A stretch of DNA of 32,000 nucleotides, from the NCBI GenBank assembly GCA_004563595.2, contig CP042461.1, forward strand, positions 540,001 to 572,000, written 5' to 3'. Under the pieces are notes generated by a model. The model saw only the letters and a list, made by a program, of their open reading frames with translations, did not search any database and was not told the DNA's origin. A program made the position numbers and the translations under genes. This DNA is from Candidatus Saccharimonadota bacterium. GTDB taxonomy: Bacteria; Patescibacteriota; Gracilibacteria; BD1-5; UBA6164. The first letter of the stretch is position 1. Each line of letters opens with the position of its first letter. This document shows, piece by piece, positions 5,036 to 32,000 of the stretch.

Positions 5036-5054
5036 AGCATAATTTAGTATATAT

Positions 5055-5528: not shown

Positions 5529-5550
5529 GGGGATTCTTTTAACTAGGAAT

Positions 5551-5578
5551 AGGGCTGAGCAATCAGCCCTACTTTTTT
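5551..5578 (+). terminator. rho-independent terminator after B1
   Basis: agggctga-gcaa-tcagccct followed by a T-run. The core ctgagcaatcag is identical to the core of the terminator at 6561-6595. Confidence 0.8.
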
Positions 5579-5602
5579 GTTTATTTTTTAGTATATATTT
5601 TA

Positions 5603-5630
5603 TTGACATGAATACTGTTTTCAGTAAAAT
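5603..5630 (+). promoter_or_regulatory. sigma70-type promoter of cassette gene A2
   Basis: TTGACA (5603-5608), a 16-nt spacer, then TAAAAT (5625-5630). Flanks are the same as in the A1 promoter. Confidence 0.6.
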
Positions 5631-5665
5631 ATTTGAATATCAATAATATTTTTTTATAAAGAATT

Positions 5666-6064
5666 ATGAATAATATTTGAGCAAACGTTGTACCAGTTAA
5701 TTTTAAGCAAAAAGAAATTGTTGAGTACAGACTTTCAGAGACTACTTATATAGTTGATGCAACAATTTTATTGCCATCGGGGGGGGAAGAAATAATTGAG
5801 AATATTCACTTTATTCCTTTTAAGTGTTTTGTAACTGATGTTTCTTCAGGTGAAGATTATGAAGATGAGGAAAAAAGTGATGTTAAGTATATAGAAGCTA
5901 GGAATTCTGCTTTTATTGCAAAATTAGCAATAAGCAATTTATTACTTGATGCGTCGGCTATTGATATAGATTTAGTAAAATTTTCTCTTCCGTACATTAA
6001 AGACTCTGAAGAGATAACCATAGGACAAACGAAAAAAACTGTTTTATCAATTGTTTCAAAATAA
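5666..6064 (+). CDS. hypothetical acidic protein A2, 132 aa (one in-frame TGA=Gly)
   Basis: The ATG at 5666 is in frame with track ORF 5771..6064, which the track starts at a TTG. The N-terminus MNNIGANVVPVNF resembles the A1 N-terminus MTTVNGNIVNF. Confidence 0.6.
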
Positions 6065-6071
6065 ATGTATA

Positions 6072-6137
6072 AAAAAATCTAATTTTCTTGTTTCTCTTGA
6101 TGTTTTTAGAGATACAAGAATGGTTAGATTTTTTTTA
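6072..6137 (+). terminator. long imperfect hairpin plus T-run (terminator or processing structure) between A2 and B2
   Basis: aaaaaatctaa..cttgtttctct..agagatacaag..ttagatttttttt forms nested arms. It ends about 20 nt before the B2 SD. Confidence 0.5.
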
Positions 6138-6159
6138 ATACCAAAAAAAGGAGTTATCT

Positions 6160-6522
6160 ATGGAGAAAGCAAAGGCTATAGACCTAAGCGTAGTTTTTTT
6201 AGAAACCGCAAGGAAGTATAAGAAAGTAGCCTTATCAAATCCAGACGTATTTGCACAAATTACATTTAGTCCAGATATTACAACGTTTTCTACTATATAT
6301 GTATTTTCATATAGTGAAGAACGTGGAGAGGCTACGGTTTTTTGTGAAAATGCTTCTAATAAGTTGAAGGATTATTTACGGCCTTATGGGAAGTTAGATG
6401 GGGTCTATAGAGTGTTTCTTCATGAGTTACCTAAAAATGAATTTTCTGAACCGAGTCTTATGCGACCATTAAGTTTGTCGAAAAGATTATTGTCAGATCA
6501 TTCAGATCATTTGGTAGCATAA
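6160..6522 (+). CDS. hypothetical protein B2, 120 aa, TGA-free; paralog of 5160..5528
   Basis: Strong SD aaaaaaggag, intact in the track, and similar to B1 (see the B1 entry). Confidence 0.7.
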   Translation: MEKAKAIDLSVVFLETARKYKKVALSNPDVFAQITFSPDITTFSTIYVFSYSEERGEATVFCENASNKLKDYLRPYGKLDGVYRVFLHELPKNEFSEPSLMRPLSLSKRLLSDHSDHLVA

Positions 6523-8414: not shown

Positions 8415-9722
8415 TTAACGAGGAGTCATTACTGTTGTTTTTGTAACACCGCTATTTAAGGCTTCAGTTATGGTAATAGTACCAGCTGTTTCATCATAAC
8501 GAAGCACTGTTGCTTGGTTATTTATAACATAGGTTCTGTTAAAATCATTTGTATTACAGTTCGTTCTACATGTAAAATAGCCTGGATCTGCATTATTTAA
8601 TAATAGAAATCAATTATTTATTTGATTACAATCAGTATCTAAGTCTCTATATCATGAAACCGTATATTGTGCTTGAGTTATCCAAGGGAAAGTATATACC
8701 ACACTTGTTGTTGTTTCTCCGCACATTGAAGTACTGATAACTGCATCCCAAACAGTATTAACAAAACCAGTATTTGCTAGTGTTATAGATGATACTGTAG
8801 CTTGGTTTTCATCTGGAAGTATAATATCTACATCTCAACCAAAACTATCATTTATTATATGTCATATGAGGTTACTTACTTCTTCATCACTTCATGTATT
8901 CATAGTTAAGAGACCTTGATATACAACATCATTTATTAAATCTGATCAGCTATATACATTTTGCAGGTTTGCTGCAAGGATAATTTGATTCGTAATATCC
9001 TCAAAATCATCAAGAAAAGTTTCTGATACTCATGCGTATACAAGTATATCTTTTCAAGTGAGTCAGAATGAAAATTGTCCCGTACCTGTTAACCTACTTG
9101 TTACACCATCAGAAGGGAGATTTGCATAACCATTAAATGCAAGTCAGAGTTTTTTTATTATTTCTATAATATCAGGGTTTGATATATCAGATCAAATTAT
9201 ACTTGGCATTGCAAGTATAAATGTTGTTCATCATGTACTTGTTTGAATACTTATAGCATTATAGGTTCATGTAATATATGCCAGGAGGTCTCATACAGCA
9301 TTTGCAGAGTTTAATGGAGCGTTTTGGGTAATATTTCCTTGTTCGAGAACTGATCAAATTTCGTATTCTTTTTGTGAACTTGTTACTGAATATACATATT
9401 CGGTATTTAATATGGGATCGATTGGAGTATTTGATAGCTGACTGATATTCGTAGTGACTGAATTTCAGACTGTTCATTGGGTCCAAACGAGTCACCCACT
9501 ATATGTAATAGCCATTCAGTTCGATGGAATTGGATACTTTCAAGTTTTCACAGAAAATAATTCAAGAGAAGTTCTTATATTGTTGATATCACTGATTCTT
9601 ACTGAATCTCTCGCAAGCGAACTATATCACTGTAGACTTATAAAAGCTATAGTTCATAAGATAGCAATTATTGTAATTACTACGATGAGTTCCACAAGTG
9701 TAAATGCTTTTTTACTTTTCAT
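8415..9722 (-). CDS. type IV pilin-like protein with prepilin N-terminal methylation domain and large C-terminal domain, 435 aa
   Basis: The N-terminus MKSKKAFTLVELIVVITIIAILGTIAFISL is the classic class III signal plus hydrophobic helix with Glu5. It is followed by about 400 aa of Ser/Thr/Asn-rich sequence with Cys residues near the C-terminus. Confidence 0.85.
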
Positions 9723-9848
9723 GTTTTCCATATTTTCCTTAAATTATATATAATAAAAGTGCATACGTATGTTAGTATATCTAAAGCCTATTCAAAACAA
9801 AAAACATAATTAATTTTTATTTGCATAATTTTAAAATATAATTATATT

Positions 9849-16081: not shown

Positions 16082-17039
16082 CTAAAATTTCTTTTTCTGC
16101 TTCTTTCATTGAAAGTTCTGTATAGAATCATGCTGCTTGTTTGTGTCATCATCATCCATATGAAGCACACAGGCTTGCTACATCATAACCAGTTGATCTA
16201 AAGCTTGTTTTTAGTTTGGTGTCATCTATATAGTAGATAAGGAAGCAAACTTCCATTCATTCCATGTTTGATAAGAATTCATTTATGAGTCATGAAGTCT
16301 CTTTATCTGTAGTATTTGTTTTTTCAAAGAGTTCTTTTGGTATTAAACCCCATACAATTTTTCAATTCTCGCTTGATTTCAGGTTTTTTAGTACTTCTCA
16401 CCAGAGTCTTGATTTTGTAAGATTTTTCTTTTTATAGAAGTGAAACATAGGAGATCTAAAATCAGCTCAAAGTTCCATGAGTTTTGCTGCTGTATGGAGT
16501 GTTGTTGGAGTTGTATTTGAATTATAGAATATATTTGTATCTGTGTGAATTCATGTTGTGAGAAGAGTTGCTATTTTTGGATCAATATATGAATCAAGTC
16601 ATATAGATTCCAATACTCTGAATAGTAATTCACATGTAGATGATGATTTTGTATCTATAATATTGAGACTTCAAAATCATGGATTGGTAATATGGTGATC
16701 AAAAACTACAAAATCTGTATTTTTAAATATTTCTATATTATTTTTATAAGTATTTCAGAGTTGATCAAGAGATGCAGCATCTAAACTAATTATCAAGTCG
16801 GGGCTAAATTGTTTTATATCTAATTCTGGAGTGACAATATCATCCATTCATAAAAAACTAAAATCAGCAGGTGATTTCTCATCATTTATAGCAGCTACAT
16901 TATAGTTTAATTTTTTAAGGATGAGATATAGTGCAGTCAAGCTTCAAAAGCAATCAGGATCCATTCTTATATGATTTATAAGAAGGATATTCTTAGCTAA
17001 AGCGAGTTTTTTTCAAAACTCTGCAATTTTTTGTTCCAT
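16059..17039 (-). CDS. nrnA: DHH/DHHA1 family phosphoesterase (NrnA-like oligoribonuclease/pAp phosphatase), 326 aa
   Basis: Motifs NHIRMDPDCFGS, DHH (VVFDHHITN) and DHHA1 (YGGGGHKQAAGF). Three consecutive Gly codons at 16146-16154 are TGA. Confidence 0.85.
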
Positions 17040-17921
17040 TGTATATGTATTATGATTTATATTGAAGAGATTATAGGTTTAATTTATTTTTAGTAAAGTT
17101 ATATCAAAAAAATAGGCGTAAAAAAAAGTTAAGTATATTGGGTAATAGGGACTTAACTTATATATTGTCTAATTCTCACGCTAGACAATATATAAGTTGT
17201 TGTCTAGGAAGAGTAGATCGATTTCGAAAAACTAACCTGTGTTTCTCTATGAAGATGCTCAATCTTCTTAATTTAAACCTCGTTTGGGCAATTATTTAAA
17301 AGCTATTCACCATGCTTTTTTATTTTTGTTTTTTGAACTATTTCTCAAGTTCTTTTTTTTGTTGTTGGGTGATAGTTATATTCATCCAATAATCAATATG
17401 AATTGATTACTCAATGAATATAACTACTTAACCGTTTTTATTTTTATTTTTGGATATAAATAAATCTATATCATCTTTTTTGGTAGGAGGTCTTACTAGG
17501 TTTCTGTAAGTTCCGTTCTAACGAAGAAAAAATTATTTTAATGAACAAGTAAGTTATTAATCTAACTTACACATTTATTATAACAGTTTATCAAAAATAT
17601 CTCTAAAATATTATATTGACTTTTCTGTTTTCTCTAGGGTCTCCTATATTATTACCCACTGTTAAGCTCTATTTTAAAGGAAAAGTAGAATTAATATTTT
17701 CTTAAGGTTTGATTTGAAAATAGTCTCTATTTTAAAGGAATTATTGTGTTTTTTAGGTCTATAAAAAGGCTACTTTGTTTCAAAAATGTATACATCTATT
17801 GAGGATACCTTTTATTGTTAATAACTTGTAGAAAACTAAGTGAAAGTCTCTTCTGTAATAAATTTGTAATTATAAAAAAATCCTTAATATAAGAGTAATT
17901 GTTTAAAAATAACACTTATAA
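17040..17921. other. ~880 bp non-coding spacer with multiple stable hairpins and terminator-like elements; candidate ncRNA(s), unidentified
   Basis: All six frames are dense in TAA/TAG. A perfect 16-bp stem lies at 17156-17171/17182-17197, overlapping a 9-bp stem at 17130s/17151-17159. A hairpin sits at 17251-17267 and a stem plus T-run at 17298-17321. A 12-bp stem with a nested 7-bp stem at 17374-17425 is followed by a T-rich run. A 7-bp hairpin lies at 17549-17570. The 16-nt direct repeat ctctattttaaaggaa occurs at 17667 and 17725. Confidence 0.5.
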
Positions 17922-19988
17922 ATGCCTGAAAATACTTACTTTACTAGGTCAAAAGGATTTCTTGGAAAAGAAATAGATACGTATGTAGAAAAAGATATCA
18001 TCGAGTTGCAAGATCTTATTTCATATCACAATGACTTATATTATAATAAAGAAGATCCTATTATCAGTGATTTTGAATATGATCAACTTTTTAAAAACTT
18101 AGCTTTCCTTGAAAAAAAGTTTTGAATTCAATCAATGCAAACGTCAGAAGTTGGTTCTACACTTAAAGAATCTACTTTTGAGAAAGTGAAGCATAGTAGG
18201 CCAATGATTAGTCTAGATAATACTTACAATGAGGATGATTTAAATGACTTTAATGAGAGGGTTTCAAAATTGTCTGATTCGGTTTGAATTATAGACTATA
18301 CTCTTGAATTCAAATTCGACTGACTATGAGTAGAGCTAATTTATAAAAATTGAAAATTGGTTCAAGCGATCACAAGGTGAAATGGTATAGAATGAGAGGA
18401 CGTTACTGAGAACGCAATGCAGGTGAGCAATATACCTAAAGAGATAGAGTATAAAGATCATTTAGAGGTGAGATGAGAAGTTGTAATGCCCATTTCTATA
18501 TTTAATGAATTGAACGAGGATGCAAAAAAGACTTGAGACAAAGTATTCTCGAATCCTAGAAATGCAGCGAGTTGAAGCTTGAGATTGATAGATAATAGTG
18601 TTACAAAAAAAAGAAAACTGAAGTTTTTTGCTTATGATCTTGCTAACTTCGAGGAGTTTAGAATAAAAGAAAATAAAACAGAGTATTTTGATGTTATTAA
18701 AGATATCGATAATTTATGATTTGAAACATCAAGTTATTTCAAAAAATTATCTTGAATATCAGAAGTTATTACAGCAGTTGAAAACTTTTGAGATACAAAG
18801 AATAATATTGATTTTGAAATTGATGGATTAGTTTTAAAAGTAAATCATATTGATTATTGGAAAAAAATAGGCTCTACTGAGCATCATCCACGTTATGCAA
18901 TTGCATATAAATTTCCTGCTGAGATATTTACCACTCAGATATTATCTGTTGAACATCAAGTTTGAAGAACTTGAGCCATCACACCAGTTGCTAATTTAGA
19001 AGCTGTAAATATGTGATGAGCTATTATTAAAAGGGCTACTTTACATAACTATGAAGAAGTAGAAAGCTTAGATGTCAGAATAGGGGATACAGTGTTTATT
19101 AAAAGAGCATGAGAAGTGATTCCTAAAATAATTTCAGTTGTAAAAACTTGAGAGAGGGATAACTTAGAGAAAATATTTCCTCCAAAATTTTGCCCGAGTT
19201 GTGAGACTGAAGTGGTAAAAGATGAGTGAAAAGTGAGGTATTATTGTCCAAATGACCTAGATTGTCCTGCAAAACATTCTGAAAAATTAGCATTCTCGGT
19301 AGGGAAACAATGATTTAATATAGATGGTCTATGAGAACGACAAGTAGAAATATTTTTACAAGAAGGGATTATTCATAACTTAGTTGATGTATTTCAGATA
19401 GAAAATAAAAGAGAAGAGATATTAGCTCTTGAATGATTTAAAGAAAAAGCGGTATCAAATCTGATTACTTGAGTAAATAATGCAAAAGATGTAAGTATAG
19501 CAACCTTCCTTACCGCACTTTGAATTGCATGAGTTGGGAAGAAGACAGCAAAGACTTTGGCTCAATTATTTGAAAATAAAGAAGATTTACTTTTATTTTC
19601 TTCATCTGTTGAAAGTTTAGAAAAACTTGCTGATATTTGACCAGAAATAGCAAAGAATGTAATTGAATATTTTTGAAATGCTGCTCATAAGAGGTTATTA
19701 GAAGAGTTAAGTGGCATATTAGATATTAGTTATTATAAAAATATTTTATTAGATTCAGATTTAATATTCACTTGAAAGAAGATGTGTATAACTTGAAGTT
19801 TTGATATATACAAAAGGGAAGAGTTAGCAAAGATACTAGAAGAAAATGGTTGAGAATTTATGAGTAGTGTCACAAAAAAAACAGATTTTTTACTTGCTTG
19901 AGACAAAGCTTGAAGTAAACTAAAAAAAGCGAATGATTTATGAGTAGAAGTTGTAAGTTTAAATGAATTTTTAGAAAGAGTAAGCTAA
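17922..19988 (+). CDS. ligA: NAD-dependent DNA ligase LigA, 688 aa
   Basis: Adenylation motif EFKFD-G-L-G with Lys at 18312-18314 and both Gly as TGA (18321-18323 and 18327-18329). Also ITRGNGIEGEDVTEN, the Zn-finger CPSCETEVVKDEG..YYCPNDLDCP, then HhH and BRCT-like regions. Confidence 0.95.
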
Positions 19989-20053
19989 TTTGTCACTTTT
20001 ATCTAAAAATATCGTTTTAATACATGTTATAAAATATTATTTTAAATGTTAAT

Positions 20054-21253
20054 TTTTTTATTATGGCTATGCAAAACTATGCAAAATTTGAATCAAGTAT
20101 TTCTGCTGATTCTGCGAGAGGAAATATGATTGAGCAGTCTTTTGGTGGATCAAACTACTACTGAAATTCATTCTTGAGTGAATTATTTAACTTTATAGGT
20201 GATTTACTTGGTTTCTTACTGGGTGCTATTATTGCTTTTTCAGTTGTATTTACATTTTTCTTCTTTGTATACATGATTGTTTCACTTTTTACAAAAGGTG
20301 GAGAAAAAACAATGTGAGAAGTAAAAATGTTATGAACTTCGTGTATAAATATGATCAAAAGATTTATTTATTGAATCGTTTCTTATTTGAAAAGAACAAT
20401 CAAATGTTTATGGAATAGGAAATACATTGTTTTAGCTGCAATACTATTACTTGCTTTTACTTCATTTGGAAAAGATGTAATAAACTGACAATCTAGATTT
20501 TTAAAACTTGATAAAATTAATCCAGGGTATGTAGGAATTGATTTGAAAAATTCTAGACTATTACAACCATGATATCATTTATATAGTCCATTAAAAACAA
20601 GCGTATTTTTATCACCTACGAATGATTTCAGTTTTCAAATTGCTGAGGTTACAGCAAACTCAAGTGAAGAGTTAGGAGTTACTCTTGATTATAAAGTATG
20701 ATTTCAATTAATAGATGACAAAAGATTAGATTTCTATAATAAATTTGGAGCAAAAAATATCAGACTTGTTTCATCTGAGATTGTTATGCCAAGACTTCTT
20801 GAGGTTATCAAATGAACTATTAAAAATTATTCATTTAAAGACATCTCATCTAAACATGATGAAATTAAGGAAATTACTATTACTGAAGCAAATAAAAAAT
20901 TAAAAGAATTAGGGGTTTCTATTCAAGATATCACCATTATAGATATTAGACTTCCAAAAAGTTATCTTTCTTCTAAAGAAGAATTACTCAAAGCTGAGAA
21001 TGGATTAAAATTAGCTGAAGCAAGGTTTGAGGCTCAAAAGAAAGAGTCAGAGAAAAGATTACTAGAGGCAAAAAATTTAAAAGAAGTAAAAATTATTGAA
21101 GCAGAGGCTCTCGCTGAGTATAATAAAATTGTTAAGTCAGAGAGTGTGACTGATAATATGTTAGAGATGAAGAAGTTAGAAAATGAAACTTTGAAGATTA
21201 AAAAATGGGATGGGAAGATGCCAAGTACAGTAGGGGATAATTCAGGGTTGTAG
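20054..21253 (+). CDS. SPFH/Band-7 (prohibitin/HflK-like) domain membrane protein, 399 aa
   Basis: N-terminal TM segments, then an SPFH core (GYVGIDL..PGYHLYSPL..LGVTLDYKVGFQLID..IVMPRLLEVIKG..GVSIQDITIIDIRLP) and a C-terminal coiled coil (AEARFEAQKKESEKRLLEAK). Confidence 0.85.
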
Positions 21254-21337
21254 GGAGGAAGGAGAACTTTTAAAAACCCATCCCCCTTCGGGGACTTTCC
21301 TTCATTCGAATGGAAGATATAAAATATAGTAATAAAA

Positions 21338-21369
21338 AAATAAAAGAGTGAATGTTCTTTTATTTTTTT
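21338..21369. terminator. bidirectional AT-rich terminator (SPFH / trmB)
   Basis: aaataaaaga-gtgaatgt-tcttttattt with flanking A/T runs. It overlaps the trmB stop. Confidence 0.6.
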
Positions 21370-22007
21370 GTGAGTTCTATGTAGCAGATTTCTAGTTTGT
21401 GTCCTCTGAAGATTTGTTCAAATTCGGTTATGTTTGTGACGTCGAATTCTTCTATGTCTTTTTCGTAGTGGTATGTTTTTCTTGATTGTTCCCAGAGATT
21501 GAGTTCATCTAAGATTTCGAGTGTTTCATCAAAGTATTCTTTATGATCGGTTTTAAATATTACTTTTCAGCCTATCTTTGTTTTATTACAAAGGTTTGTT
21601 AAGAATTCTTCTTGGAGGAGTTTATGTTTTTTTTGTCTGTCTTTTTTTGCCCAGGGGTCAGGGAAGAATATATATGTGAGTTCGAGTTCTCAGTCTGCGA
21701 AGATATCAGTTATCTTTTGTGCAAAGTCTTTGATAACTACAAAGTTTTCTCATCATTTTGCGATGGTTTTTTCTGCTGTATTATAGACTCTTTTATATTT
21801 TATTTCCATTCCGATATAATTTTTGTCTGGATTTTTTGAAGCTTCTGTACTAAAAAAATTCCCAAGTCCTGTCCCTATCTCTAGGACAATTGGATTATTA
21901 TTTCAAAAAAACTCATTCCATTTTCACTTGTGTTTTGATGCTTCTTCAGACTTTGTTATTATATTTGGGTGCGCTTTTACCTTCTCTATATAGGGGTTAT
22001 TTATCAC
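21360..22007 (-). CDS. trmB: tRNA (guanine-N7)-methyltransferase TrmB, 215 aa
   Basis: SAM motif [11 protein letters not shown], then IGMEIKY and the family signature [20 protein letters not shown] start with aagga 9 nt upstream; an in-frame TAA lies just upstream of it. Confidence 0.88.
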
Positions 22008-22096
22008 GGTTTTATTTCCTTAAAAAATATTTGCAATTTACAGCATTATATATAGACTAAAGCAGCTTCAAAAAGATTTTACAAAAATCTTTATAC

Positions 22097-22172
22097 GGAT
22101 CCATAGCTCAGTTGGTAGAGCACTCGCCTCTTAAGCGATAGGTCCCGGGATCGTAGCCCGGTGGGTCCACCA
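22097..22172 (+). tRNA. tRNA-Lys (anticodon CTT) with encoded CCA
   Basis: Cloverleaf by hand: acceptor GGATCCA/TGGGTCC, D arm GCTC-AGTTGGTA-GAGC, anticodon arm CTCGC-CTCTTAA-GCGAT, variable loop AGGTC, T arm CCGGG-ATCGTAG-CCCGG, discriminator A, then CCA. Confidence 0.93.
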
Positions 22173-22190
22173 AATAAATAAACCGCATAA

Positions 22191-22238
22191 AATAGCCGTT
22201 TTTAGTTTTAATTAACTAAGAGACGGCTATTTTTATTT
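22191..22238 (+). terminator. long hairpin terminator after the tRNA
   Basis: aatagccgt..ttagtt-ttaatt-aactaa..acggctatt followed by a T-rich run. Confidence 0.6.
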
Positions 22239-22269
22239 TATATATTGGCTTTGTATAAGTAAAAAGTAT

Positions 22270-22285
22270 GATCGTAGCCCGATGG
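22270..22285 (+). repeat. partial duplicate of the tRNA-Lys 3' T-arm (att-like direct repeat)
   Basis: gatcgtagcccgAtgg matches tRNA positions 22149-22164 (gatcgtagcccgGtgg) at 15 of 16 bases, and it is GC-rich in an AT-rich context. Confidence 0.6.
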
Positions 22286-22288
22286 AAC

Positions 22289-22687
22289 TTATGTTGAAAT
22301 ATTTGATTTTTTAAATTCTGAGACTGGTGTAGCTTGATGAAATTTCATTTTCCATTTATTATTACTTTTAGACCAAATTGAAGTTCTTTTTGCATGTCTA
22401 CTTAAAACACCATCTTGATCCAATCTTGCTTCAAGATAATTTAATATAAATAAATCTGGTTTTAGTTCTATGCATGAATAATCTTGAGACCAAATTACGT
22501 ATTCAGTTTTGTGTTCATTTAATAAATCTGCAAGTGTTGAGTCATAAGTATGCGTTGAACCACTATATCAAATTTCAATAAAAGATTCATCTAATAATTC
22601 TTTGAGTTTAGACTGATTGATTCTGTTTTCGTAATTATGTAAAATTATTTCATGTTTTTTAAGTATATCTAATATTTTATTATTCAT
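22289..22687 (-). CDS. DUF4440 / NTF2-like (SnoaL-like) domain protein, 132 aa
   Basis: LLDESFIEIGYSGSTHTYD and the C-terminal RTSIWSKSNNKWKMKFHQATP match the DUF4440 signature (..F.E.G.SG..; RSSIW....W...FHQGTP). Confidence 0.75.
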
Positions 22688-22935
22688 ATATTTTATATTG
22701 ATAATTAATTATATTTCAAATGTATTCAAATTATAAATAACATATTATATGAGAGTGGATTTATTTCAATAATTTCTTTAATTTTTCATAAATTTCAAAA
22801 ACTTCATCCTGATTTCAGGCAATATATTTCAAAGAATAAATTCAGTATAAAACCTTCTGATCTGATTATTGACTTTTCAACAAAAACTATTATATATTAG
22901 TGTAATAGTTTTTTATTTTTTTAACATACTAATCT

Positions 22936-23409
22936 ATGTCTACAAATACCCTGAAAACATCAATCGTAGATGAACATAGTTTATGAGAAAAACCATCTCA
23001 TGTATCCTTTGAATCTTCAGAAAAAAACAAAATTATAAAAAGAATTTTAATTTTGATAGCACAAAAATTTAATGGTGATATCAAGAGGATTTTAAATAAC
23101 AGAGAAATGAATTTCGAGGAATTCTATAGTGCTGTAAGTTGTGATAATTCTAGATTAGCACTTACCTTATCAGCGCTCAAAAAAGACATAATAGATCATT
23201 CAAGGGGAGATTTATTATCATTATTTGAAGGATATAATAATCATGAAATAAATCAAGAGATAAGTGAAATCGTATATTGTGTTACAGTACTATTAGATGA
23301 TAAAGATTCTTTTCTTAGTACTCTTTCTAGATGGGAAGAAGGTGATGAGAGTGATTTTTTAGATATATATGATTTGATACGTAGTTTAATGAGTAAAAAC
23401 TCTGTGTAA
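22936..23409 (+). CDS. hypothetical protein, 157 aa
   Basis: The ATG at 22936 is in frame with track ORF 23053..23409, with one TGA (Gly) in between. A TTGACT..TATATT promoter-like pair lies about 60 nt upstream. Confidence 0.6.
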
Positions 23410-23410
23410 T

Positions 23411-23647
23411 TTAAACCTTACTAATTTGAAAAGCATATATATAGCTAAGAATAACCTTAGTACTCTTCCTAGAGAAATGTGAAATCTTACTAATTTTGAA
23501 TCATTACAAATGGGGTTGAATGAGGAATTATCTCCATTGGATACATTCTATTTTGAAAAATATTCAGATAATGATAATACTAAATGAAACATAAGAATAA
23601 TATGGAATAAATTTACAAAAAAGGTGGAGATAACATTTGATAATTAA
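23411..23647 (+). pseudogene. leucine-rich-repeat protein C-terminal fragment (no credible start)
   Basis: The frame opens only at 23390. NLTNLKSIYIAKNNLSTLPREMGNLTNFESLQM fits the LRR consensus LxxLxLxxNxLxxLPxxIGxLxxLxxL. There is no ATG or SD; a TTG occurs at 23426. Confidence 0.4.
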
Positions 23648-23681
23648 TATAAATAATACAATAAAAATACTGAAAATAAAT

Positions 23682-24896
23682 ATGAAAAAAAACTTACATG
23701 AAGAATTACTTCAATTAATTGAAGCTGAACCTACTAATGAATCAGTATTAGATCTACTATGTCAAATTGATGATAATATTCAAAAAATCATAGAGAGTAG
23801 ATTTCAGTGAAAGAGAAGTGAAAGGTTAGAAGAAAAAATTAACTGAAGTATATTTAAAGCTTTTAAAGATAATGAAACTGGGTACTCTATTAATAATTAT
23901 TTAGATATTATTATTAATAGAGTTGAAAAAATTTTAGGAAATTCTGAAAAAAATATTTCTGAAATTTTAAGTGAATTATGAATATTTGCTCTACATCATT
24001 CTCAAACTCTACTGATAGCTAATGAAAATAAAAATAAATGAGTGATTAAATGAAGTTGAGAGTGATATGTAGAATCATATAATAATGATAAATTAAAATC
24101 TTTATTAGAGATACTAAATTGATTATGAATATATTGAGACGATATTATTTGTCATATTTGAGGGGTAGAAAAAAATATGATGAGAAAATATTGATATATT
24201 TATATTCAAATACCTCAATTAAATAGATCAGTTTTGATTTCTGATGGTTCTTGAGAAAATACCTTTGTAATAAAATGACTCCCAAAGGATGCATATTTTT
24301 TTCAAAGTACCAAGATAGATATTTTTAATGATTTTGAAGTCGATTCTATCCCATATACAAAACGTTGGTGAGAGTTGATATTAGAAAAACTACAAGAAGA
24401 TTTTATACCAAAAATCAAAATGAAAGAAAAAATTTCTATGTTTACCACTTCAGAACTATTAAATATATTTCAGAATGATAAAAGGTACCACCCTGATATA
24501 TTAATGAAATCAAGTGCAAAAAACTTGAAGCAGATAAATATATGATGATATAACCTCACACAGATTGCTAGACTGTTCCATATAAAAGGTGCAGAAAATA
24601 TATTATGAGAAGTAAGACCAGAAAATAAAAAATTACATCTTGCATATTTATTGAAGTCTATCTTTTGAGTTGGTTATGAAAGTATTATGGAGGTTATTAA
24701 TTTGTCTCAATCCCAAGAAAAAGCACCGAAAGAAGCCTCTTGATGGAAGGTTAAATCTCAACAACTAGGATATTTTCCGGAAGTTTTATTATCAAAAACA
24801 CAAGCAGAACTTAAGCTCTGTCGAGTATGTGGTTTTACGTTATCTGAAATAGCATGAGAATTAAAGGTTGCAGATACGTATGGTATCAAGTGATAA
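23682..24896 (+). CDS. N-terminal part (404 aa) of a tandem-repeat HTH-like protein, ending at in-frame TAA 24894-24896
   Basis: ATG at 23682. About 270 aa of unique domain is followed by repeats starting at 24492 and 24777. The TAA sits in the middle of repeat 2. Confidence 0.7.
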
Positions 24897-26357
24897 TATA
24901 ATTATTCTGGTAACAAATACCATTTAGCTTGTTTATTGCAAACTATTTTTTGAAAGTGAGCAGAAGTTATCGATAGTATCATCACAAAATATGAAGAAGA
25001 AGTGTTTAAATCTTGAGATGAATGGAAAGGAATTATTAAGGATGTATATACACCAGAAAATTTTATGGATTTAACTTGAGAGAAGTTTTCAAAAATGATT
25101 GTTAGATCAGGAGAAACAATAATAGATATATGGAAAAAAAAGAATCAAGATGGAAAGAGAATTTTTACATCTCTACATCCGTGAAAATCTATATATAATA
25201 GGGCCTGATTCGCATCAGAAATATATGGAGATATGTATGAATGTATTAATGATGTAATAGTCAGGGAAGATAATAGATTAAATGTTCCTATTGATTGACA
25301 TAATTGGAAAAAAAGTTTTCTATCAGAAGAAATTACTCCAGATATATTGATGAAATTAACAAACGTAAAATTAAGAAAAACTTATGTCTCTTGATATTCT
25401 TTATGAGAAATTGCATGATTTTTAGGAGTAAGAAAAACAAATAATTTAGATAATAAAGTAGAAGTCTATGGATCGAAATATTTTTTAGCATTGCTATGAC
25501 AATTAATATTTTGAATGTGATATGATTGTTTTGATTTTGTTGTAAGTAGGGAAAGAGACTTATGAAGATTTCCAAAAAATATAAGTGAAATTAAAAATTT
25601 AATAATTAAAGAATGATATAATCCAGATACAATTATGGGATTAAGCTTTTGAGATTTTAAGACCGCTCAAGTTGCAGGAATATTGTTCAGTGATATTACG
25701 AGAGTAGTTGATAAAAAAGGAAATCATGTTTTATCTTGTGAACGTCCAACAAAAAATTTATATAGCAGAGCGCTGTTTTGTAAGATAATTTTTTGAGAAT
25801 GACATAAATCTGTAGATCAAAAAATTGAAGATGAAGAAGAAAAATTACTGGCTCCGACTACGAAAGAAGGCTGGGAAAGAGAATTTGTAAAAAAATGATA
25901 TACTCCTGATATGTTATTCTCATATTCTATAATACAAATTGAAGAAATAAGGATTTGTGGTTTTAGTTTAGGAGAATTATGATCACAATTTGAGATAAAA
26001 AAGGTATACGGTATTTCAGGAAATTCAAATCCATCAAAGAATAAATATAATTTAGCATGTTTACTTTTGTTAATTTTTTGAGGGTGATATCAAAAAATTG
26101 ATAGAATATTTTATAGTATAGATGATTGGAAGAATGAATTTGAAAAAATATGATATTCGAAAGAACATATTTATTGATTATCAGAAGATAATATAAAAGG
26201 TATAAAAATATGCTGATTGTCTTTTTGAGATATTGCATTGTTATTACAAGTAAAAAAATATTTTGGGTATAAAGAAAAATCAAATTTTTATAACAAAAAG
26301 AAACACCTACCTTATTTATTAGATTTTATTTGATTAAGGCAGGGGGAATTAAATTAG
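24897..26357 (+). pseudogene. continuation (486 codons) of the same repeat protein after the in-frame TAA; no start of its own at the junction
   Basis: Same frame, open to TAG at 26355-26357 under table 25. Repeat homology continues straight across the stop: YGIKG*YNYSGNKYHLACLL versus YGISGNSNPSKNKYNLACLL in repeat 6. The first in-frame ATG is only at 25065. Confidence 0.65.
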
Positions 26358-26560
26358 AATCAACAGAATTAATATATTATTTATATTCATTCAGATAAAA
26401 AAATAATAAATTCAAAATCTCCTCAGTCCGTTGTTTTATAATCATTAGATTTAAGAGTAGAAGAAAAATCAATTTGAAAATCACCAAGACCTTTTTTTGT
26501 TATATTCTATTCAAAATAGAAGTACTTTTATTATCATCTAAATAATTATTCATTTTCACT

Positions 26561-26593
26561 AAAAAAGACTAGATTAATTTCTAGTCTTTTTTT
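26561..26593. terminator. bidirectional terminator
   Basis: aaaagactaga-ttaatt-tctagtctttt with an A-run and a T-run, between convergent genes. Confidence 0.8.
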
Positions 26594-26617
26594 AATCAGG
26601 TCTGGATGAGAATAAAA

Positions 26618-26947
26618 TTAAATATTTTTTTCTAAAATTCTAAATTCTATTTTCCCACCTTTATGTAATTGAATAATACATTGAGGCTCCTGTTCAGTTT
26701 TTATTTCTGCAAAAGCATCTATTATGACCTTTTTTGCACCGTCTAAAGTATTTACCTTTATAGTATATTTTGGATTTCCTATAAAATTTACTTTAAACTC
26801 TTTTGCTATAGATCTTACATGTTGTAATATATCTTCATCACTTGGGATATCATACTCTTCTTCACAAGTAAAAGATATACTCTTTAATTTATAGCGTTTA
26901 TTTAAATCTCTCAAACTGAGAGAACAAAGGATTGTACTAGGAATCAT
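26618..26947 (-). CDS. small hypothetical protein, 109 aa, TGA-free
   Basis: Intact in the track. SD-like aagga lies 7 nt upstream and a terminator lies downstream. Confidence 0.6.
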   Translation of the reverse strand: MIPSTILCSLSLRDLNKRYKLKSISFTCEEEYDIPSDEDILQHVRSIAKEFKVNFIGNPKYTIKVNTLDGAKKVIIDAFAEIKTEQEPQCIIQLHKGGKIEFRILEKNI

Positions 26948-27084
26948 AGATTGTCCTTATTTGTTTCGGGATAACTATTTTGGTTACCTAACTTTAATAT
27001 ATATCAAAATTATACAATGTCAAAAAAAGACTCACTTGATGTAGATTAGTCAAGAACATAAAGTTTTAAAGGAGAAGTACACTT

Positions 27085-27159
27085 ATGTATAAGTGCAGCG
27101 TTTGCGGATATCGTGAAGAAGATGTATTTAATAATGGGGTTGGGAGTACACATATGTAA
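27085..27159 (+). CDS. 24-aa mini-ORF resembling a rubredoxin N-terminal knuckle (possible remnant)
   Basis: Strong SD aaaggaga. MYKCSVCGYREEDVFNNGVGSTHM can be compared with the rubredoxin N-terminus MKKYxCxVCGYIYxPExGDPDNGVxPGT. The second CPxCG knuckle is absent. Confidence 0.4.
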   Translation: MYKCSVCGYREEDVFNNGVGSTHM

Positions 27160-27226
27160 CTAATCTACCATAAAATGTATGAAGATATAAAACATAAAAA
27201 AATATTCTATATCTAAAAAGGGAGCC

Positions 27227-27415
27227 ATGAAAAAGAAAAACTTTATTGCTAGATTTTTAATCAAAATAAAAGAAGTGAGATTGAATAGAAACTGATGATT
27301 CTGTATTATATGTGCATGAAATAATATAAAAGACAAGCAGTGGTTTATATGGACCCGTTGGAGAAAATTTGAAGATAAAAAAAAGCCCGTTTGGTACGGG
27401 CACTTTAGATCTTAG
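27227..27415 (+). CDS. possible small basic protein, 62 aa (three TGA=Gly)
   Basis: SD aaaaagggag lies 2-3 nt from the ATG. The product contains GGFCIICAG. The 3' end overlaps the terminator of the convergent gene, so this call is uncertain. Confidence 0.35.
27376..27402 (-). terminator. rho-independent terminator of 27424..27693
   Basis: On the minus strand: gcccgt-accaa-acgggct followed by T8. Confidence 0.8.
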
Positions 27416-27423
27416 CTTAACAA

Positions 27424-27693
27424 TTACTTCCCTGTAAAAAGCAAGTATAGTAATGGAAAAGCTATGGTACTAACTATAAAAAGAAGAGAATACATAAAGC
27501 CTTTTGATTGATAAAAACGTGTCCCAAATGAATGTACTCCATGCTTCATAGCATTTTTCATTCTTTTCTCATCTCTCTCATGACTGACTCTTCTGTATTC
27601 TGCTATTTTTGTTCTAATAGCATCACCAGTGTTATCAATATTAGAGGTTTTGTTATTCATGATTCTTCTCTCTATTGTTGAAAGTAAACTCAT
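27424..27693 (-). CDS. small tail-anchored membrane protein, 89 aa, TGA-free
   Basis: Intact in the track. A basic N-terminal part is followed by a single C-terminal TM segment, FMYSLLFIVSTIAFPLLYLLF. An alternative start exists at Met12. Confidence 0.55.
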   Translation of the reverse strand: MSLLSTIERRIMNNKTSNIDNTGDAIRTKIAEYRRVSHERDEKRMKNAMKHGVHSFGTRFYQSKGFMYSLLFIVSTIAFPLLYLLFTGK

Positions 27694-27744
27694 TATATAT
27701 AAGTATTAGCAATATCAAATAAAAAGTGTCAATAAACTTCAGAA

Positions 27745-27776
27745 ATAAAAAAAGACCTAGTTATTCACTAGGCCTA
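27745..27776 (-). terminator. rho-independent terminator of the Cys-rich gene
   Basis: On the minus strand: aggcctag-tgaataa-ctaggtct followed by a T-run. Confidence 0.75.
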
Positions 27777-27803
27777 ATATGTAAGTATTATGATGGTATT
27801 TTA

Positions 27804-27992
27804 TTAACAATCCTCACACAAATCCACACCTAAAATATTTTTAACTGCAGGTTGGGGGCATTCTTCACATGTTTCACTTGTTGGAGTAGTATCTACTTCA
27901 TGACAAGGCTGGCACATACCATCAATAAGATCATCAGGGTCACATATCTCTGGACAACGTGAACATTTAACATTTTTGTTTTCATCAGACAC
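27804..27992 (-). CDS. acidic Cys-rich small protein, 62 aa (four CxxC knuckles plus one extra Cys), TGA-free
   Basis: GTG start with aggag 8 nt upstream. Sequence is VSDENKNVKCSRCPEICDPDDLIDGMCQPCHEVDTTPTSETCEECPQPAVKNILGVDLCEDC. The longer TTG-start version in the track begins inside the promoter. Confidence 0.6.
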   Translation of the reverse strand: MSDENKNVKCSRCPEICDPDDLIDGMCQPCHEVDTTPTSETCEECPQPAVKNILGVDLCEDC

Positions 27993-28019
27993 TATTTTAT
28001 CTCCTATAGGTTGAGAGGA

Positions 28020-28049
28020 TTTATTATATAAAAATAAATTATATGTCAA
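28020..28049 (-). promoter_or_regulatory. promoter of the Cys-rich gene
   Basis: On the minus strand, TTGACA (28049-28044) and TATAAT (28028-23). The spacer is 15 nt, or 17 nt to TAATAA. Confidence 0.4.
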
Positions 28050-28062
28050 TATATATTACAGT

Positions 28063-28758
28063 TTAATAACCATAAAATGGGTCATTTAGAATTCTTTTTT
28101 TAGTGATCTTATTTTCTGTTAAAGTATTTGTTGCTCACTTTATCATATCAAGAGTTCCTGAAATATAAAAATATCATCTATTACTATACTGAAGAGCATA
28201 GTTTTTTATATATTTCGATAATTCTTGTCTCCCAGTTAAATAATGAAGAGTTATTGTATCATTATTTTTTTCTATTTCATTAAACTCTTCCTGAAACAAA
28301 TATCAATCATGTGAAGAGTAGAGAAGTATTACCTCTCTTGATGTATTATGTTTTAGTTTTTCTAAAAAAGCTCTCATAGGTGCGATACCGATTCCTCACG
28401 CTATTAATATAATAGGGGAAGACTGGTCTTGTATTTTAAAGTTTCCAAATGGACCACGTAATTTTATAGTATCTCATTTTTTCATACTCTTTAATTTTGC
28501 TTTGAATTGACTCGGCTTGTTACCGATTTTTGTTGCTACTTTCATAATCCCTTCTTCTGGATTTGATGCAATACTCAATGCTCTCCATCATCTATCTTTT
28601 ATTTTTTCTGTGAGTGAAAAAAATCAATGTTCTCATGTGAACCATTTTGAATTCGGTGCTTTAAAGTCAAATACATAATAATCTCCAAATGGATTCTCAC
28701 TTTTTACAAGCTCTATAATATCGGTTTTAAATACTCATTTATAATCATTTAGTGCCAT
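28063..28758 (-). CDS. FNR-like FAD/NAD(P)-binding oxidoreductase (ferredoxin reductase-type), 231 aa
   Basis: FAD motif RALSIAS (RxYSxxS type), GPFG, and NAD(P)-binding loop ILIAGGIGIAPMRAF, in which the first Gly of GG is TGA. Confidence 0.8.
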
Positions 28759-28846
28759 GGTTTTTTGTTATATTATTAAATGGAAATCTTGTATTATTTC
28801 TTTTATTTGTTAAGATTCACACATATAATATAACCATGGAGTATAG

Positions 28847-28857
28847 TTGACGGTCAA
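28847..28857. promoter_or_regulatory. palindrome TTGACgGTCAA in the merR / reductase divergent region, candidate operator
   Basis: On the minus strand it reads TTGACC, then a 19-nt spacer, then TATATT. A 19-nt spacer is the length typical of MerR-controlled promoters. Confidence 0.35.
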
Positions 28858-28878
28858 TACTTTTTTATAAAAATTATT

Positions 28879-29229
28879 ATGAGGATTTGAGAATTAGTTC
28901 AGAAAACAGGAATTAGTAGGGATACAATTCGTTTCTATGAAAAAAAGTGACTCATTACTTCTTCTGAGTGAAAGGATATTTCTAATAATTATAGAGATTA
29001 TGATGAAGAGAACATAAAGAATATATCGCAAATTCAATTTATGAAAAAGTTATGATTTACTCTCAAAGAATGTGAAGTTTGAATCAGGAAAAGAAAAAAT
29101 AATGAATTTAACCCAGAATCTAATAAAAAATTTATAAAAGAAAGGATTGCACTTATAGATAAACAGATTCAAGAACTTGTTGATATAAGAACTGAGTTTG
29201 AAGTGTTGTATAAAGAGCAATGAAAATAA
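28879..29229 (+). CDS. MerR family transcriptional regulator, 116 aa
   Basis: MRIGELVQKTGISRDTIRFYEKKGLI; the Gly of M-R-I-G-E is TGA at 28888-28890. A coiled-coil dimerisation helix is present, along with a single Cys in ..LKECEV.. Confidence 0.9.
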
Positions 29230-29306
29230 GTATAATCGGATGAGAATGTAAAATGAAATGAACTATTGAGAGAATATCTTAGGATTATAAGTATTTAAAT
29301 AAATAT

Positions 29307-29340
29307 AAAAACGATTACATGGACTGTAATCGTTTTTATT
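29307..29340. terminator. bidirectional terminator (merR / 29356..29883)
   Basis: aaaaacgattaca-tggac-tgtaatcgttttt. Confidence 0.8.
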
Positions 29341-29355
29341 ATACCTAAATGTTTA

Positions 29356-29883
29356 TTAAAGTTCTGCTAAACAAGTTCCTAAAAATGGTATTTTTTTAGA
29401 GCGTGAACACATACAAGTTTGTAGTAATTCACATTCTGTCAGTACCTCACTCCTTAATTGTAATGACATTATCTCCTTATCTGTCCAAAAACAAAAATCA
29501 TCACTTAATTCAAAGCATGTTTTTTGAAGTTTAAATTGTTTTTGATTTAACTCATGGAGCATAGAATTAACTTTTTCTTCTAGCTCATGAACAGTTTTAT
29601 AACATCTGGTCATAATTGGTTCGATTTTTTTTCGAGAGATATTATCGTTATCTGTAAAAAAAAAGTCTAAATCAAAGCAGAATTCTTCTATAAGATTTTG
29701 CTGGGATTCGTAATAATCGTGTGGTTGAAAATGAATTAAGTATATATATCTATCATAAAGAGTAGATAAAACCTTTGTATAATATGTAATTATTCGTTTT
29801 CTTTTTTCTTGTACTTCTGCAACGGTATAAGTTTGTGGATTAGAGAATTGAGAATATGATAGTCTATCAATTGATACTCGCAT
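29356..29883 (-). CDS. hypothetical helical Cys-containing protein, 175 aa, TGA-free, only one Gly
   Basis: Intact in the track. SD gagagg lies 8 nt upstream and a terminator lies downstream. Confidence 0.65.
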   Translation of the reverse strand: MRVSIDRLSYSQFSNPQTYTVAEVQEKRKRIITYYTKVLSTLYDRYIYLIHFQPHDYYESQQNLIEEFCFDLDFFFTDNDNISRKKIEPIMTRCYKTVHELEEKVNSMLHELNQKQFKLQKTCFELSDDFCFWTDKEIMSLQLRSEVLTECELLQTCMCSRSKKIPFLGTCLAEL

Positions 29884-30084
29884 TTTAATTACCTCTCACA
29901 TATACATAGCTTAATGTAATATTATATTATAGTAATAGAATATAAAGTCAATTTTTGTGTGATATATTTAGAAGCTAATGTCTTTTAATGAAAAGAGCTT
30001 TCATTTATATTCTTTGTCTCGGTTGTAATTTTTAGTCAAAGCAATATTGAAAAACCCTGAAATATTAGTATCATTGCAACATCA

Positions 30085-30121
30085 AAAAAGATTAGAGGTT
30101 AATCTAATCTTTTATTTTTTT
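30085..30121 (+). terminator. orphan terminator-like hairpin inside a divergent intergenic region
   Basis: aaaagattag-aggttaat-ctaatctttt followed by a T-run. No ORF precedes it. Confidence 0.5.
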
Positions 30122-30258
30122 GAGTAGGGGTATTGATCTATTGCAGTATCATTATTTAAGTATTATTAATTCTACTTATTTTAGTTATTTCATATGATCA
30201 GTCGGAATAATTACAATTATTATAAATTAGCTTCAAAATATTATTAACAACCCTTTTT

Positions 30259-31506
30259 ATGAAAAAAAACATACTTTTAACACTGATAATATTATCTATA
30301 TTTATATTTACTACTCATGCTTATAATCTAAACAATAAAGACCAATTATTCATCAACAATATCACTCTGAAAATAGAAAAAATAATTTCTAAAAAATGAG
30401 AAAAATATAGAAATCTATTTATTAATAAATTAACAAAATATTCTATAAAGTATAGGGATACAAAACCAAGATATTCAGAGATATTTATATGAGTTGCTGA
30501 AAATATAACAATAGAAGCAATTCCTAAAAAATGTTATCTATGAATGGAAGTACCATCTGATTTAATGAGATTTTCAAAAGATTCTCCATGGAGACAAAAA
30601 ATATTAAGCACTCAGACGCTTGATAGTAATTCGGATGCTATGATAGCAAACTTAAAAAAGATCCTTACCATTGATCTTAAAAAATCAAAAGCAGTATTAA
30701 ATCCAAGCATTCAAAAATGGTCGTCACCAGTTCATATAATAGATAGTGATAACTGCGAACTATTTGACGTACAAAATGAAAACTGAAGTTACCATGACTC
30801 TATTGATCCTGATAGGGATTGAATTATTAAGAACATACCAATACCAAAAGAAATTTGGGCAGAACCAGAAGTAGACTGACATACAATTTTGATCGATTTG
30901 AATAAAAGAAAAGTTCGGGAATTTTCAAGGTTTCAACAGTTATCAAACTGAAAATATCAAGCGAGTACAGCTGCGATATGGGATCTAGATTCAAAATGAA
31001 TATGAAAAGCGTTTGATTGAAAAACTTGGTATAGGCAGTGAGTAAATGGAGCAGGAACGTCTTACTTTGGATGAATGATTACGTTTGAAGAAATGAAAGC
31101 CTGAAAAATTGAGCATGTACTTGCGGTGAGTACTCCAGCAAATAGGAAAAAAATGAGTAAATGATGAGCTTATAATTCTGAACTTTGTGCTGATGTAGCA
31201 ACAAGAACAGATGGATGGGGAATAGGACCAGAATTCATTTTAGAAGGTCAAAAAATTCAATTAAATCCAGATTTAGATCTTGATAAAATAGGCCTTTCTG
31301 AGAATGCAAAAATTATAGCAAGAGCATTGCAAGAGTATTGAGCATATGTAATGGATAATGCAAGATGATTTAATCTTATTATGCAAAACATGGATAGTGA
31401 TTGATCTGGAAAAACTTGGATAAAAGATTTTTCAGATGTAAATTTATTTGATATCCCCCTTGATGAATTTAGAGTGTTGAGTTGTGATAATGTAATGAGG
31501 AAATAA
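30259..31506 (+). CDS. secreted hypothetical protein, 415 aa
   Basis: Signal peptide MKKNILLTLIILSIFIFTTHA. In frame with track ORF 30544..30786. Many TGA codons read as Gly. I recognised no family. Confidence 0.7.
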
Positions 31507-31566
31507 CAAAATCAAACATAGCTATATTCATGTTTTGAATCTTTGCTCATTTGTAAAATGCTAATA

Positions 31567-31594
31567 AAAGAGAGGAATTAATCCCTCTCTTTTA
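31567..31594 (+). terminator. rho-independent terminator
   Basis: aaaagagagg-aattaat-ccctctctttt. Confidence 0.8.
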
Positions 31595-31666
31595 TGTTAT
31601 TTTTTGACTTAAGTCTTTTTTCCATATATACTACATGAAAATATAATATACGTAATATCTGAAATA

Positions 31667-32000
31667 ATGGATAAAAAATTAAACATAAAAATCTACTGAG
31701 TAACAACTGTTTGACCGAAATGACAAGTAATTATTCCTCGTGATTGTAGGCCAGAATTTGGAATAAATATTTGAGATGACCGTCCTATTATAACAATTGA
31801 TAATATTGCTTTTGGTTTACCTAATCCAGATAATTGAGATGAAATATGCGAGGATGGTGAACTTGATGAGAAATCGATTGATTGTTTTTGATCTGTTAAA
31901 ATATGAACAAAACACCAATTTGTAATCCCAAGTGAGATCAGGAGTGCTCTTTGAATAAAGAGTTGAGATTCGTTAGTTGTTATATGAAAAGAGTGAGAAT
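31667..32000 (+). CDS. AbrB/MazE/SpoVT-family DNA-binding protein with two SpoVT-AbrB domains (3' partial)
   Basis: VGPKGQVIIPRDCRPEFGINIGD and IGTKHQFVIPSEIRSALGIKSGDSLVVIGKE both match the swapped-hairpin consensus. The gene runs off the end of the window. Confidence 0.8.

Follow-up and report, generated by a model that had tools for sequence, protein, structure and literature searches.

Does the frame at positions 23682-26357 on the forward strand of a 32,000-nucleotide stretch of a gracilibacterial genome (GenBank contig CP042461.1, positions 540,001 to 572,000; hereafter the window) encode one protein or two, and are the tandem repeats within it DNA-binding modules? An earlier note on this DNA had described a gene of about 890 codons with a unique N-terminus and seven repeats, had likened the repeats to sigma-70 region 4 or LuxR-type helix-turn-helix (HTH) units, and had offered a recent nonsense mutation, an assembly error or population heterogeneity as explanations of a single in-frame TAA. 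We find that this gene layout holds, that the repeats do not belong to the sigma/LuxR type of HTH domain, and that the locus is probably a recently inactivated copy of a single gene from an undescribed, sparsely distributed bacterial family.

The reading of the frame depends on the genetic code. Translated with table 11, 23682-26357 (+) carries 51 stops, namely 49 TGA codons, the TAA at 24894-24896 and a terminal TAG at 26355, and throughout the window long open reading frames (ORFs), e.g., those for LigA, an RND pump, an ELP3-like radical-SAM protein and a pilin-like protein, appear only with TGA as a sense codon. The invariant glycines of the KxDG and TRGxG motifs of the LigA in this window are encoded by TGA, and UGA is therefore correctly read as glycine (code 25). 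The nearest relatives of this LigA, at 51-72% identity, belong to metagenome-assembled genomes (MAGs) of Candidatus Gracilibacteria, which, with the UGA assignment, bears out the earlier placement of the DNA in a Gracilibacteria-type genome. The source is a closed BD1-5 gracilibacterium genome of 1.343 Mb and 28.87% G+C (CP042461; Sieber et al. 2019, PMC6851277). Translations of this genome differ by source, with UGA rendered as Trp by JGI, Logan and ENA and as Gly by NCBI.

With code 25, the locus is one frame of 891 codons in which a unique N-terminus of 261 amino acids (aa) is followed by seven repeats of 65-95 aa each, at pairwise identities of 18-43%. A hidden Markov model (HMM) trained on six repeats and tested on the one left out, with 300 shuffles per repeat as the null, recovers every repeat at 30.6-76.6 bits, compared to a shuffle maximum of 7.2 bits. 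This holds for repeat 1 (24492-24776, 95 aa, 76.6 bits), repeat 2 (24777-25052, 92 codons broken by the TAA, 73.3 bits), repeat 4 (25338-25622, 95 aa, 69.3 bits), repeat 5 (25623-25904, 94 aa, 56.7 bits) and repeat 6 (25905-26159, 85 aa, 66.8 bits), as well as for repeat 3 (25053-25337, 95 aa, 30.8 bits), which is the most divergent, and repeat 7 (26160-26354, 65 aa, 30.6 bits), a truncated terminal unit of a kind that also closes the arrays of family homologues. The repeat starts first proposed, and all of the peptide strings quoted with them, are thus present in the translation, while the dimensions are adjusted: the period is 255-285 nt rather than 258-285 nt, the N-terminus is 261 aa rather than about 270 aa, and the last two repeats have the shorter lengths given above.

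Repeats 2, 4 and 6 are most alike (32-43%) and copies of a short DNA repeat lie 561/567 nt apart, suggesting that two-repeat units were probably duplicated as the array grew. No long DNA repeats are found in the array, and the duplications are therefore old; nor is a further copy of the repeat found elsewhere in the window.

The TAA divides this frame into an upstream ORF (23682-24896, +), which encodes 404 aa from ATG 23682 and spans the N-terminal domain, repeat 1 and repeat 2 up to its residue 39, and a downstream continuation (24897-26357, +), which takes in what is left of repeat 2 and then repeats 3-7 up to the terminal TAG, and is called as a 473-aa gene from TTG 24936. JGI and Logan start the upstream ORF at TTG 23637 (419 aa), and the ATG at 23682 agrees with the N-termini of aligned homologues; the 404-aa NCBI protein (P0003) is its code-25 translation.

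Run exhaustively with hmmsearch over 1.84 billion representatives, the seven-repeat profile returns 43 proteins at E<=1e-3, which comprise the two halves from the window, about 37 true relatives, and four unrelated eukaryotic repeat proteins (P0037, P0043, P0049 and P0050) that we rejected. In 31 relatives, the N-terminal domain is present and joined to the repeat array in one polypeptide, with an N-terminus of 226-315 aa followed by 3-11 repeats up to the C-terminus, and all 31 are uninterrupted, which answers the question raised in the earlier note of whether homologues are intact. Relatives that use UGA as glycine are recognised by Trp residues that stand at glycine positions because code 4 was used in the source translation, and both of these (P0011 and P0018) are intact on re-translation. 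The gene in the window aligns over the full N-terminus and, if the TAA is read through, has seven repeats up to the C-terminus, within the family range of 3-11, and it departs from the family in not being one uninterrupted polypeptide, owing to the TAA at 24894.

Neither module has a real match in Pfam, NCBIfam, PADLOC or PHROGs, in agreement with the earlier impression that no named family applies; matches there are sub-threshold, with no stretch passing, and are an artefact because the scores sum over repeats. The family profiles likewise find no relative among PDB sequences. Word-indexed protein searches with the 891-aa product and the repeat profile give no match, and a pattern-based locus search with the full protein finds no relative in genome and metagenome contigs; these two negatives carry little weight, since the first missed the catalogued proteins of the window itself (P0001-P0006) and the second missed the source locus, which must be lacking from those collections or masked in them. 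In viral contigs, a degenerate DNA pattern for 'IYGEGHEC' gives one match, which is due to chance, being out of frame and without an HMM match. The two-module family thus appears to be undescribed in sequence, and to be rare and sparsely distributed among bacteria.

What, then, does the TAA represent? It lies directly 3' of a TGA (Gly) codon, in the variable loop of repeat 2. A codon alignment with the nearest relatives, two paralogues on a UGA=Gly contig (ENA ERZ25068762, here L072), reads 'GGA TAC TAT' in L072 and 'TGA TAA TAT' in the window, i.e., an in-frame stop stands where homologues have the Tyr codon TAC, with homology on both sides. The closest UGA=Gly relative with TAC at this site is 32% identical to the N-terminal product P0003. 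Judged from these sequences, a single transversion would explain the stop, and the codon that it replaced was most probably TAY (Tyr). Downstream of the TAA, 486 codons follow without a TAA or TAG, whereas shuffles of the same DNA average 38.7 such stops, the lowest count being 19; with about 39 stops expected, so long an open frame indicates that coding constraint acted on the downstream part until very recently or continues to do so. Because the nearest relatives carry TAC and 486 stop-free codons follow, the TAA most likely arose by a recent nonsense mutation that split what had been one gene, a case of ordinary gene decay.

An artefact of sequencing or of assembly, or else a minority allele in a population in which most cells hold an intact gene, would also account for a stop that is one base away from a Tyr codon in an otherwise intact frame. 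Window positions 16618-32000 are 100% identical, 'TGA TAA' included, in a 418,566-bp JGI metagenome contig (sample 3300030037) and in the Logan assembly of SRR3580189, and JGI, Logan/ENA (416,895-bp contig) and NCBI (1,343,103-bp contig; 404 aa and 473 aa) each list two proteins here, one per half, so that the same base recurs in every assembly compared. These three to four assemblies come from different assemblers and probably share their source data, perhaps a single sequencing experiment, and are thus independent as assemblies and not as samples. The closed genome was, however, manually curated to perfect read support (42x coverage), and the BD1-5 population is described as near-identical genome-wide except at one unrelated PTD-repeat locus (PMC6851277). 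A scan of metagenome contigs for this site, with the third base of the TAA left degenerate, gives no matches. Since all assemblies carry the same TAA and the curated genome stems from a near-clonal population, assembly error and population heterogeneity, two of the three explanations first proposed, are both unlikely, and we consider an intact gene in most cells improbable; the third, a recent nonsense mutation, is favoured by the Tyr codon in relatives.

Programmed readthrough or recoding of the UAA, which would yield the full 891-aa protein, is the least credible of the explanations and in our view very improbable. The 'UGA UAA' codon pair is unusual in a genome where UGA is already reassigned, and the downstream frame is conserved. 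TAA is nevertheless the normal terminator of most window genes (five of the seven checked), no other gene in the window has an in-frame TAA with continuing homology, no recoding signal is found, and in relatives the position is taken by an ordinary Tyr codon.

A more serious contender, although still a doubtful one, is a functional split gene, in which an N-terminal domain with 1.4 repeats and a 5.6-repeat array translated from an internal start (TTG 24936 or ATG 25065) work separately or reassemble. Consistent with this, the 486 downstream codons are fully open, all annotation pipelines call two genes, and repeat-only proteins exist in the database (P0030, P0045 and P0046), although these may be fragments. 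Start prediction offers no help here: a Shine-Dalgarno-like motif lies within 25 nt upstream of the start in almost none of the 15 confident genes of the window, which evidently need no such motif, and prediction from it is therefore uninformative in this BD1-5 genome. Against a split, the stop interrupts a repeat domain instead of separating two domains, the candidate restart at 24936 would begin translation halfway through the 'KYxLAxLLxxIFG' helix, and no family member with the N-terminal domain has fewer than three complete repeats. A promoter scan is at background (41 sites vs 34 +/- 5.6 expected), with no promoter or terminator signal above background flanking the break, and a very recent mutation would likewise leave the downstream frame intact.

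Under a recent nonsense mutation, the course of events would be as follows. In the ancestral state, a helical N-terminus (about 100 aa), an alpha/beta domain (about 145 aa) and the tandem repeats would have formed one polypeptide, in which a point mutation, most likely in a Tyr codon, would then have created a UAA in the loop of repeat 2. The main product would now be the N-terminal domain with 1.4 repeats, a truncation that is expected because UAA is the usual stop codon of this genome, and 5.6 repeats would be left stranded.

Do the repeats bind DNA? Seven sigma-70 region 4 or LuxR-like HTH modules would make a multi-site DNA-binding protein, and several local features are compatible with this. 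The motif G-[FYL]-[ST]-L-x-[ED]-I-[AG]-x-x-L-x-V looks like an HTH helix-2 region, Pfam Sigma70_r4_2 matches the whole protein at E=0.0012 and the homologue P0034 at E=0.046, a weak local hhalign alignment is located on the LuxR HTH region (P=0.008), and a K/R-rich stretch, 'KEKRKFKI.GKG', occurs in the family consensus. At 18.8 bits, however, the Pfam match falls short of the gathering score of 25.7 and is a sum of weak pieces with no stretch passing; taken alone, only one of the seven repeats matches Sigma70_r4_2 (E=0.07), and GerE and Sigma70_r4 are not listed. An hhalign comparison of 183 family repeats gives 5.1% for LuxR-type HTH and 1.5% for sigma region 4, compared to 96.5% for a LuxR-versus-sigma control, with small reference alignments whose sequences were entered by hand. 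The family is also mostly acidic, with a median net charge of -7 and some members at -28, and an isoelectric point below 7 in 26 of 35 members.

The predicted structures point the same way. In the single-repeat model, a beta-hairpin precedes the 'EIA' helix and no recognition helix follows it; the candidate segment is a loop of variable length, with indels and the highest entropy. Foldseek searches of PDB and BFVD return no sigma, LuxR or other HTH protein, and the best E-value exceeds 2. The likeness to sigma-70 region 4 and LuxR/GerE domains (PF08281, PF04545 and PF00196) is thus confined to a short motif, G-h-[ST]-h-x-E-I-A-x-x-L-x-V, which covers the first helix and turn. An HTH domain is a bundle of three to four helices in 50-60 aa, in contrast to a repeat unit of 80-95 aa with six to seven helices and a hairpin, and where the HTH has its recognition helix, the repeat has 12-15 loop residues of variable length. 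Taken together, the sub-threshold Pfam scores, the low hhalign probabilities, the missing recognition helix, the lack of an HTH match in Foldseek and the acidic character of the family lead us to drop the HTH reading. Of what the earlier note proposed for the repeats, the sigma/LuxR likeness therefore falls, and the profile comparison that it suggested yields neither HTH similarity nor a named family. The repeats are not sigma/LuxR-type HTH domains, a multi-site DNA-binding protein is improbable, and a role as generic DNA binders seems unlikely from the sequences.

What the repeat forms instead is suggested by an AlphaFold2 model of repeat 4, with the other six repeats as the alignment (pLDDT, predicted local distance difference test, 80.9; pTM, predicted template-modelling score, 0.70). 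The first half of the modelled unit consists of a linker helix that starts from a conserved Trp, two short helices around 'YPTPE.LM' and a beta-hairpin at 'FKI.G.GL'; the second half consists of the 'IA..L' helix (7-8 aa), a helical turn of 4-5 residues, a loop of about 12 residues and two long helices, 'KY.LA.LL..IFG' and 'YE.ID'. The predicted unit is thus one of 80-95 aa with six to seven helices and one small beta-hairpin. An AlphaFold2 model of the 404-aa N-terminal product, made with a 31-sequence family alignment (pLDDT 86.2, pTM 0.74), shows repeat 1 with the same pattern.

In the 404-aa model, the N-terminal helical region (aa 1-98, 23682-23975) has five helices (H5-15, H20-41, H47-63, H70-85 and H92-98). 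The conserved domain that follows (aa 99-245, 23976-24416), as delimited by the family alignment and the model, is predicted to be alpha/beta, with elements E102-109, H136-147, E156-161, E173-177, E182-186, E194-198, H203-217, E220-223 and H229-237, i.e., a strand, a Gly-rich loop, a helix, four strands and helices. The family alignment places in it a G-x-G-x-G loop and the motifs IY(T/G)DD, MR..SY.LIEIPR..R.VL.C and GE(A/N)TFV; two residues are invariant (Y172 and P178) and three nearly so (G160, R168 and K211), and all five are present in the gene of the window. A GIY-YIG-like spacing seen by eye (GIY...G-x7-R-x3-Y) has no Pfam support.

Neither model is matched significantly by Foldseek in PDB or BFVD (best E 3.4, 2.4 and 0.65; TM-scores at most 0.3), and the modelled fold is, provisionally, new as far as these two collections show.

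Entropy over the 183 family repeats separates a conserved, hydrophobic scaffold (W1, YPTPE, G30 and IYGE(G)H) from two variable stretches, repeat HMM columns 19-24 and 40-56, which correspond to the helix that precedes the hairpin and to the long loop that follows the 'IA' helix. The paralogues of L072 reveal where change is concentrated: their N-terminal-domain DNA is identical at 867 of 870 nt (99.7%), with all three differences non-synonymous, compared to 679 of 744 nt (91%) in the repeat-array DNA, in which repeat variants are mosaically reshuffled. These paralogues lie in tandem at 111-1751 and 1880-3514 of the contig, and part of the region upstream is also duplicated. Four copies of the repeat stand behind a different N-terminus in P0051 (425 aa), which has a weak 'Helicase associated domain' match (PF03457, E=9.3e-4); the repeat therefore behaves as a mobile module that is not bound to one N-terminal domain.

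A conserved scaffold that displays two variable segments, in an array that changes faster than the N-terminal domain, argues for a binding platform. On this basis, our best guess from the sequences is a binding array attached to an effector domain, in which the array would serve as a modular, multivalent platform for a protein or other non-nucleic-acid partner and the alpha/beta domain would be an effector or catalytic module positioned by the array. We assume a cytoplasmic location, since the N-terminus has no signal peptide.

Several points weigh against our reading of the locus and of its product. No particular ligand or activity is backed by structural or sequence analogy, and the roles of array and effector are ones that we only infer. 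Gene neighbourhoods in seven contexts contain no conserved partner genes and so give no hint of function, and the novelty of the fold is provisional, within the scope of Foldseek against PDB and BFVD. For the inactivation itself, a minority sense allele at the TAA is possible, and the downstream ORF is fully intact, so that expression from an internal start, on which Shine-Dalgarno motifs do not inform here, is conceivable.

A bolder proposal is that the family is a programmable multivalent recognition array, made of a new helical repeat fold of about 90 residues and a new alpha/beta domain, with hypervariable patches displayed by a rigid scaffold and recombination between paralogues, its logic being like that of ankyrin, LRR or TALE arrays. 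We regard this as a speculative extension with a small chance of being right. If it were true, episymbiotic candidate-phyla-radiation (CPR) bacteria and scattered other lineages would use the array in interactions with hosts, phages or competitors, and its loss in this gracilibacterium would represent turnover under such conflict.

The surroundings of the gene are poorly conserved. Among 31 LigA-syntenic loci from other Gracilibacteria, we find no homologue of the gene, of its N-terminal domain or of the flanking orphan genes, and near LigA only TrmB is conserved, in 3 of the 31 loci. The stretch at 22900-27000, without counterpart in these loci, holds a 157-aa orphan (22936-23409), a leucine-rich-repeat (LRR) remnant, the split repeat gene and a 109-aa orphan (26618-26947, -). 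The LRR frame (23390-23647, +) lies between the upstream orphan and the repeat gene, overlaps the end of the 157-aa ORF in another frame, and reads as two 23-aa LRR units (NLTNLKSIYIAKNNLSTLPREMGNLTNFESLQ...) with a matching DNA direct repeat at 23413 and 23482; its Pfam matches to LRR_4 (E=9.7e-4) and LRR_8 (E=2.6e-3) are both sub-threshold, pipelines call a 73-aa gene, and it looks like the remnant of an LRR gene. The GGTGGAG upstream of TTG 23637 sits within the 3' end of this frame. Because homologues are lacking in the LigA-syntenic loci and an LRR remnant adjoins, we place the repeat gene in a non-conserved, apparently decaying stretch, and 22900-27000 appears to be a strain-specific accessory region in decay.

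Elsewhere in the window, two tandem paralogous genes at 95-1165 (-) and 1187-2299 (-) are 43% identical over 375 aa, each with a signal-peptide-like N-terminal segment, and are separated by 21 in-frame nt and one stop. A 438-aa protein at 8415-9731 (-) has, by eye, a type IV prepilin-like N-terminus (KAFTLVELIVVITIIAILG) and a long C-terminal region that contains Cys. An apparent mutual similarity among small ORFs at 4691-6522 is not borne out by BLASTP.

These findings suggest dropping the idea of a seven-HTH protein, and leave a family of about 37 clusters among 1.84 billion representatives with confident models and no solved relative, a tractable target for structural and functional work through a homologue that uses the standard code. 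The split by the TAA is of modest interest for the turnover of accessory genes in CPR genomes. More generally, recoded lineages are under-served by standard homology look-ups: genes with UGA as glycine escape table-11 tools and word-indexed protein searches, and the present repeat family surfaced only by an exhaustive profile search.

The two modules can also be compared to several known systems. The other repeat-containing protein noted in the organism, most likely in the same BD1-5 genome, is a hypervariable surface protein of PTD tripeptides with hypervariability at the DNA level, a predicted extracellular location and an N-terminal transmembrane helix (PMC6851277); our gene, in contrast to those 3-aa repeats, has old, divergent repeats of 85-95 aa and no signal peptide, and the two are unrelated. 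The N-terminal alpha/beta domain resembles the E2/UBC-RWD-like alpha-beta4-alpha fold in the order of its elements (helix, four strands, helices), and UBC domains of UBE2O and a BIRC6 entry recur among its top Foldseek rows (best E 0.65). We reject this fold given a Foldseek probability of at most 0.07, a TM-score of about 0.15, an hhalign probability of 0.1% against E2 sequences and no conserved catalytic Cys or HPN motif. For the repeat, death-fold six-helix bundles, including bacterial death-like and CARD domains (PDB 8ss1 and 9cs7), are similar in size (about 90-100 aa) and helix count and are among the top Foldseek rows, at values that are not significant (E=3.8 and 7.2, TM-scores 0.25-0.28, root-mean-square deviation 10-12 Å).

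The parallel to the helical repeat scaffolds, i.e., ARM/HEAT, ankyrin, TPR/Sel1, TALE and PPR, is one of logic only; no known helical repeat family matches in Pfam, where the sole hint is ARMH5 on one repeat (E=0.06-0.09) with nothing in homologues. The present unit is two to three times longer than theirs, contains a beta-hairpin and is predicted to fold confidently alone (pTM 0.70). What it shares with them is a tandem layout of helical units whose core is conserved and whose surface positions vary, and, like those scaffolds, the arrays of this family vary in copy number, from 3 to 11, and reshuffle between paralogues.

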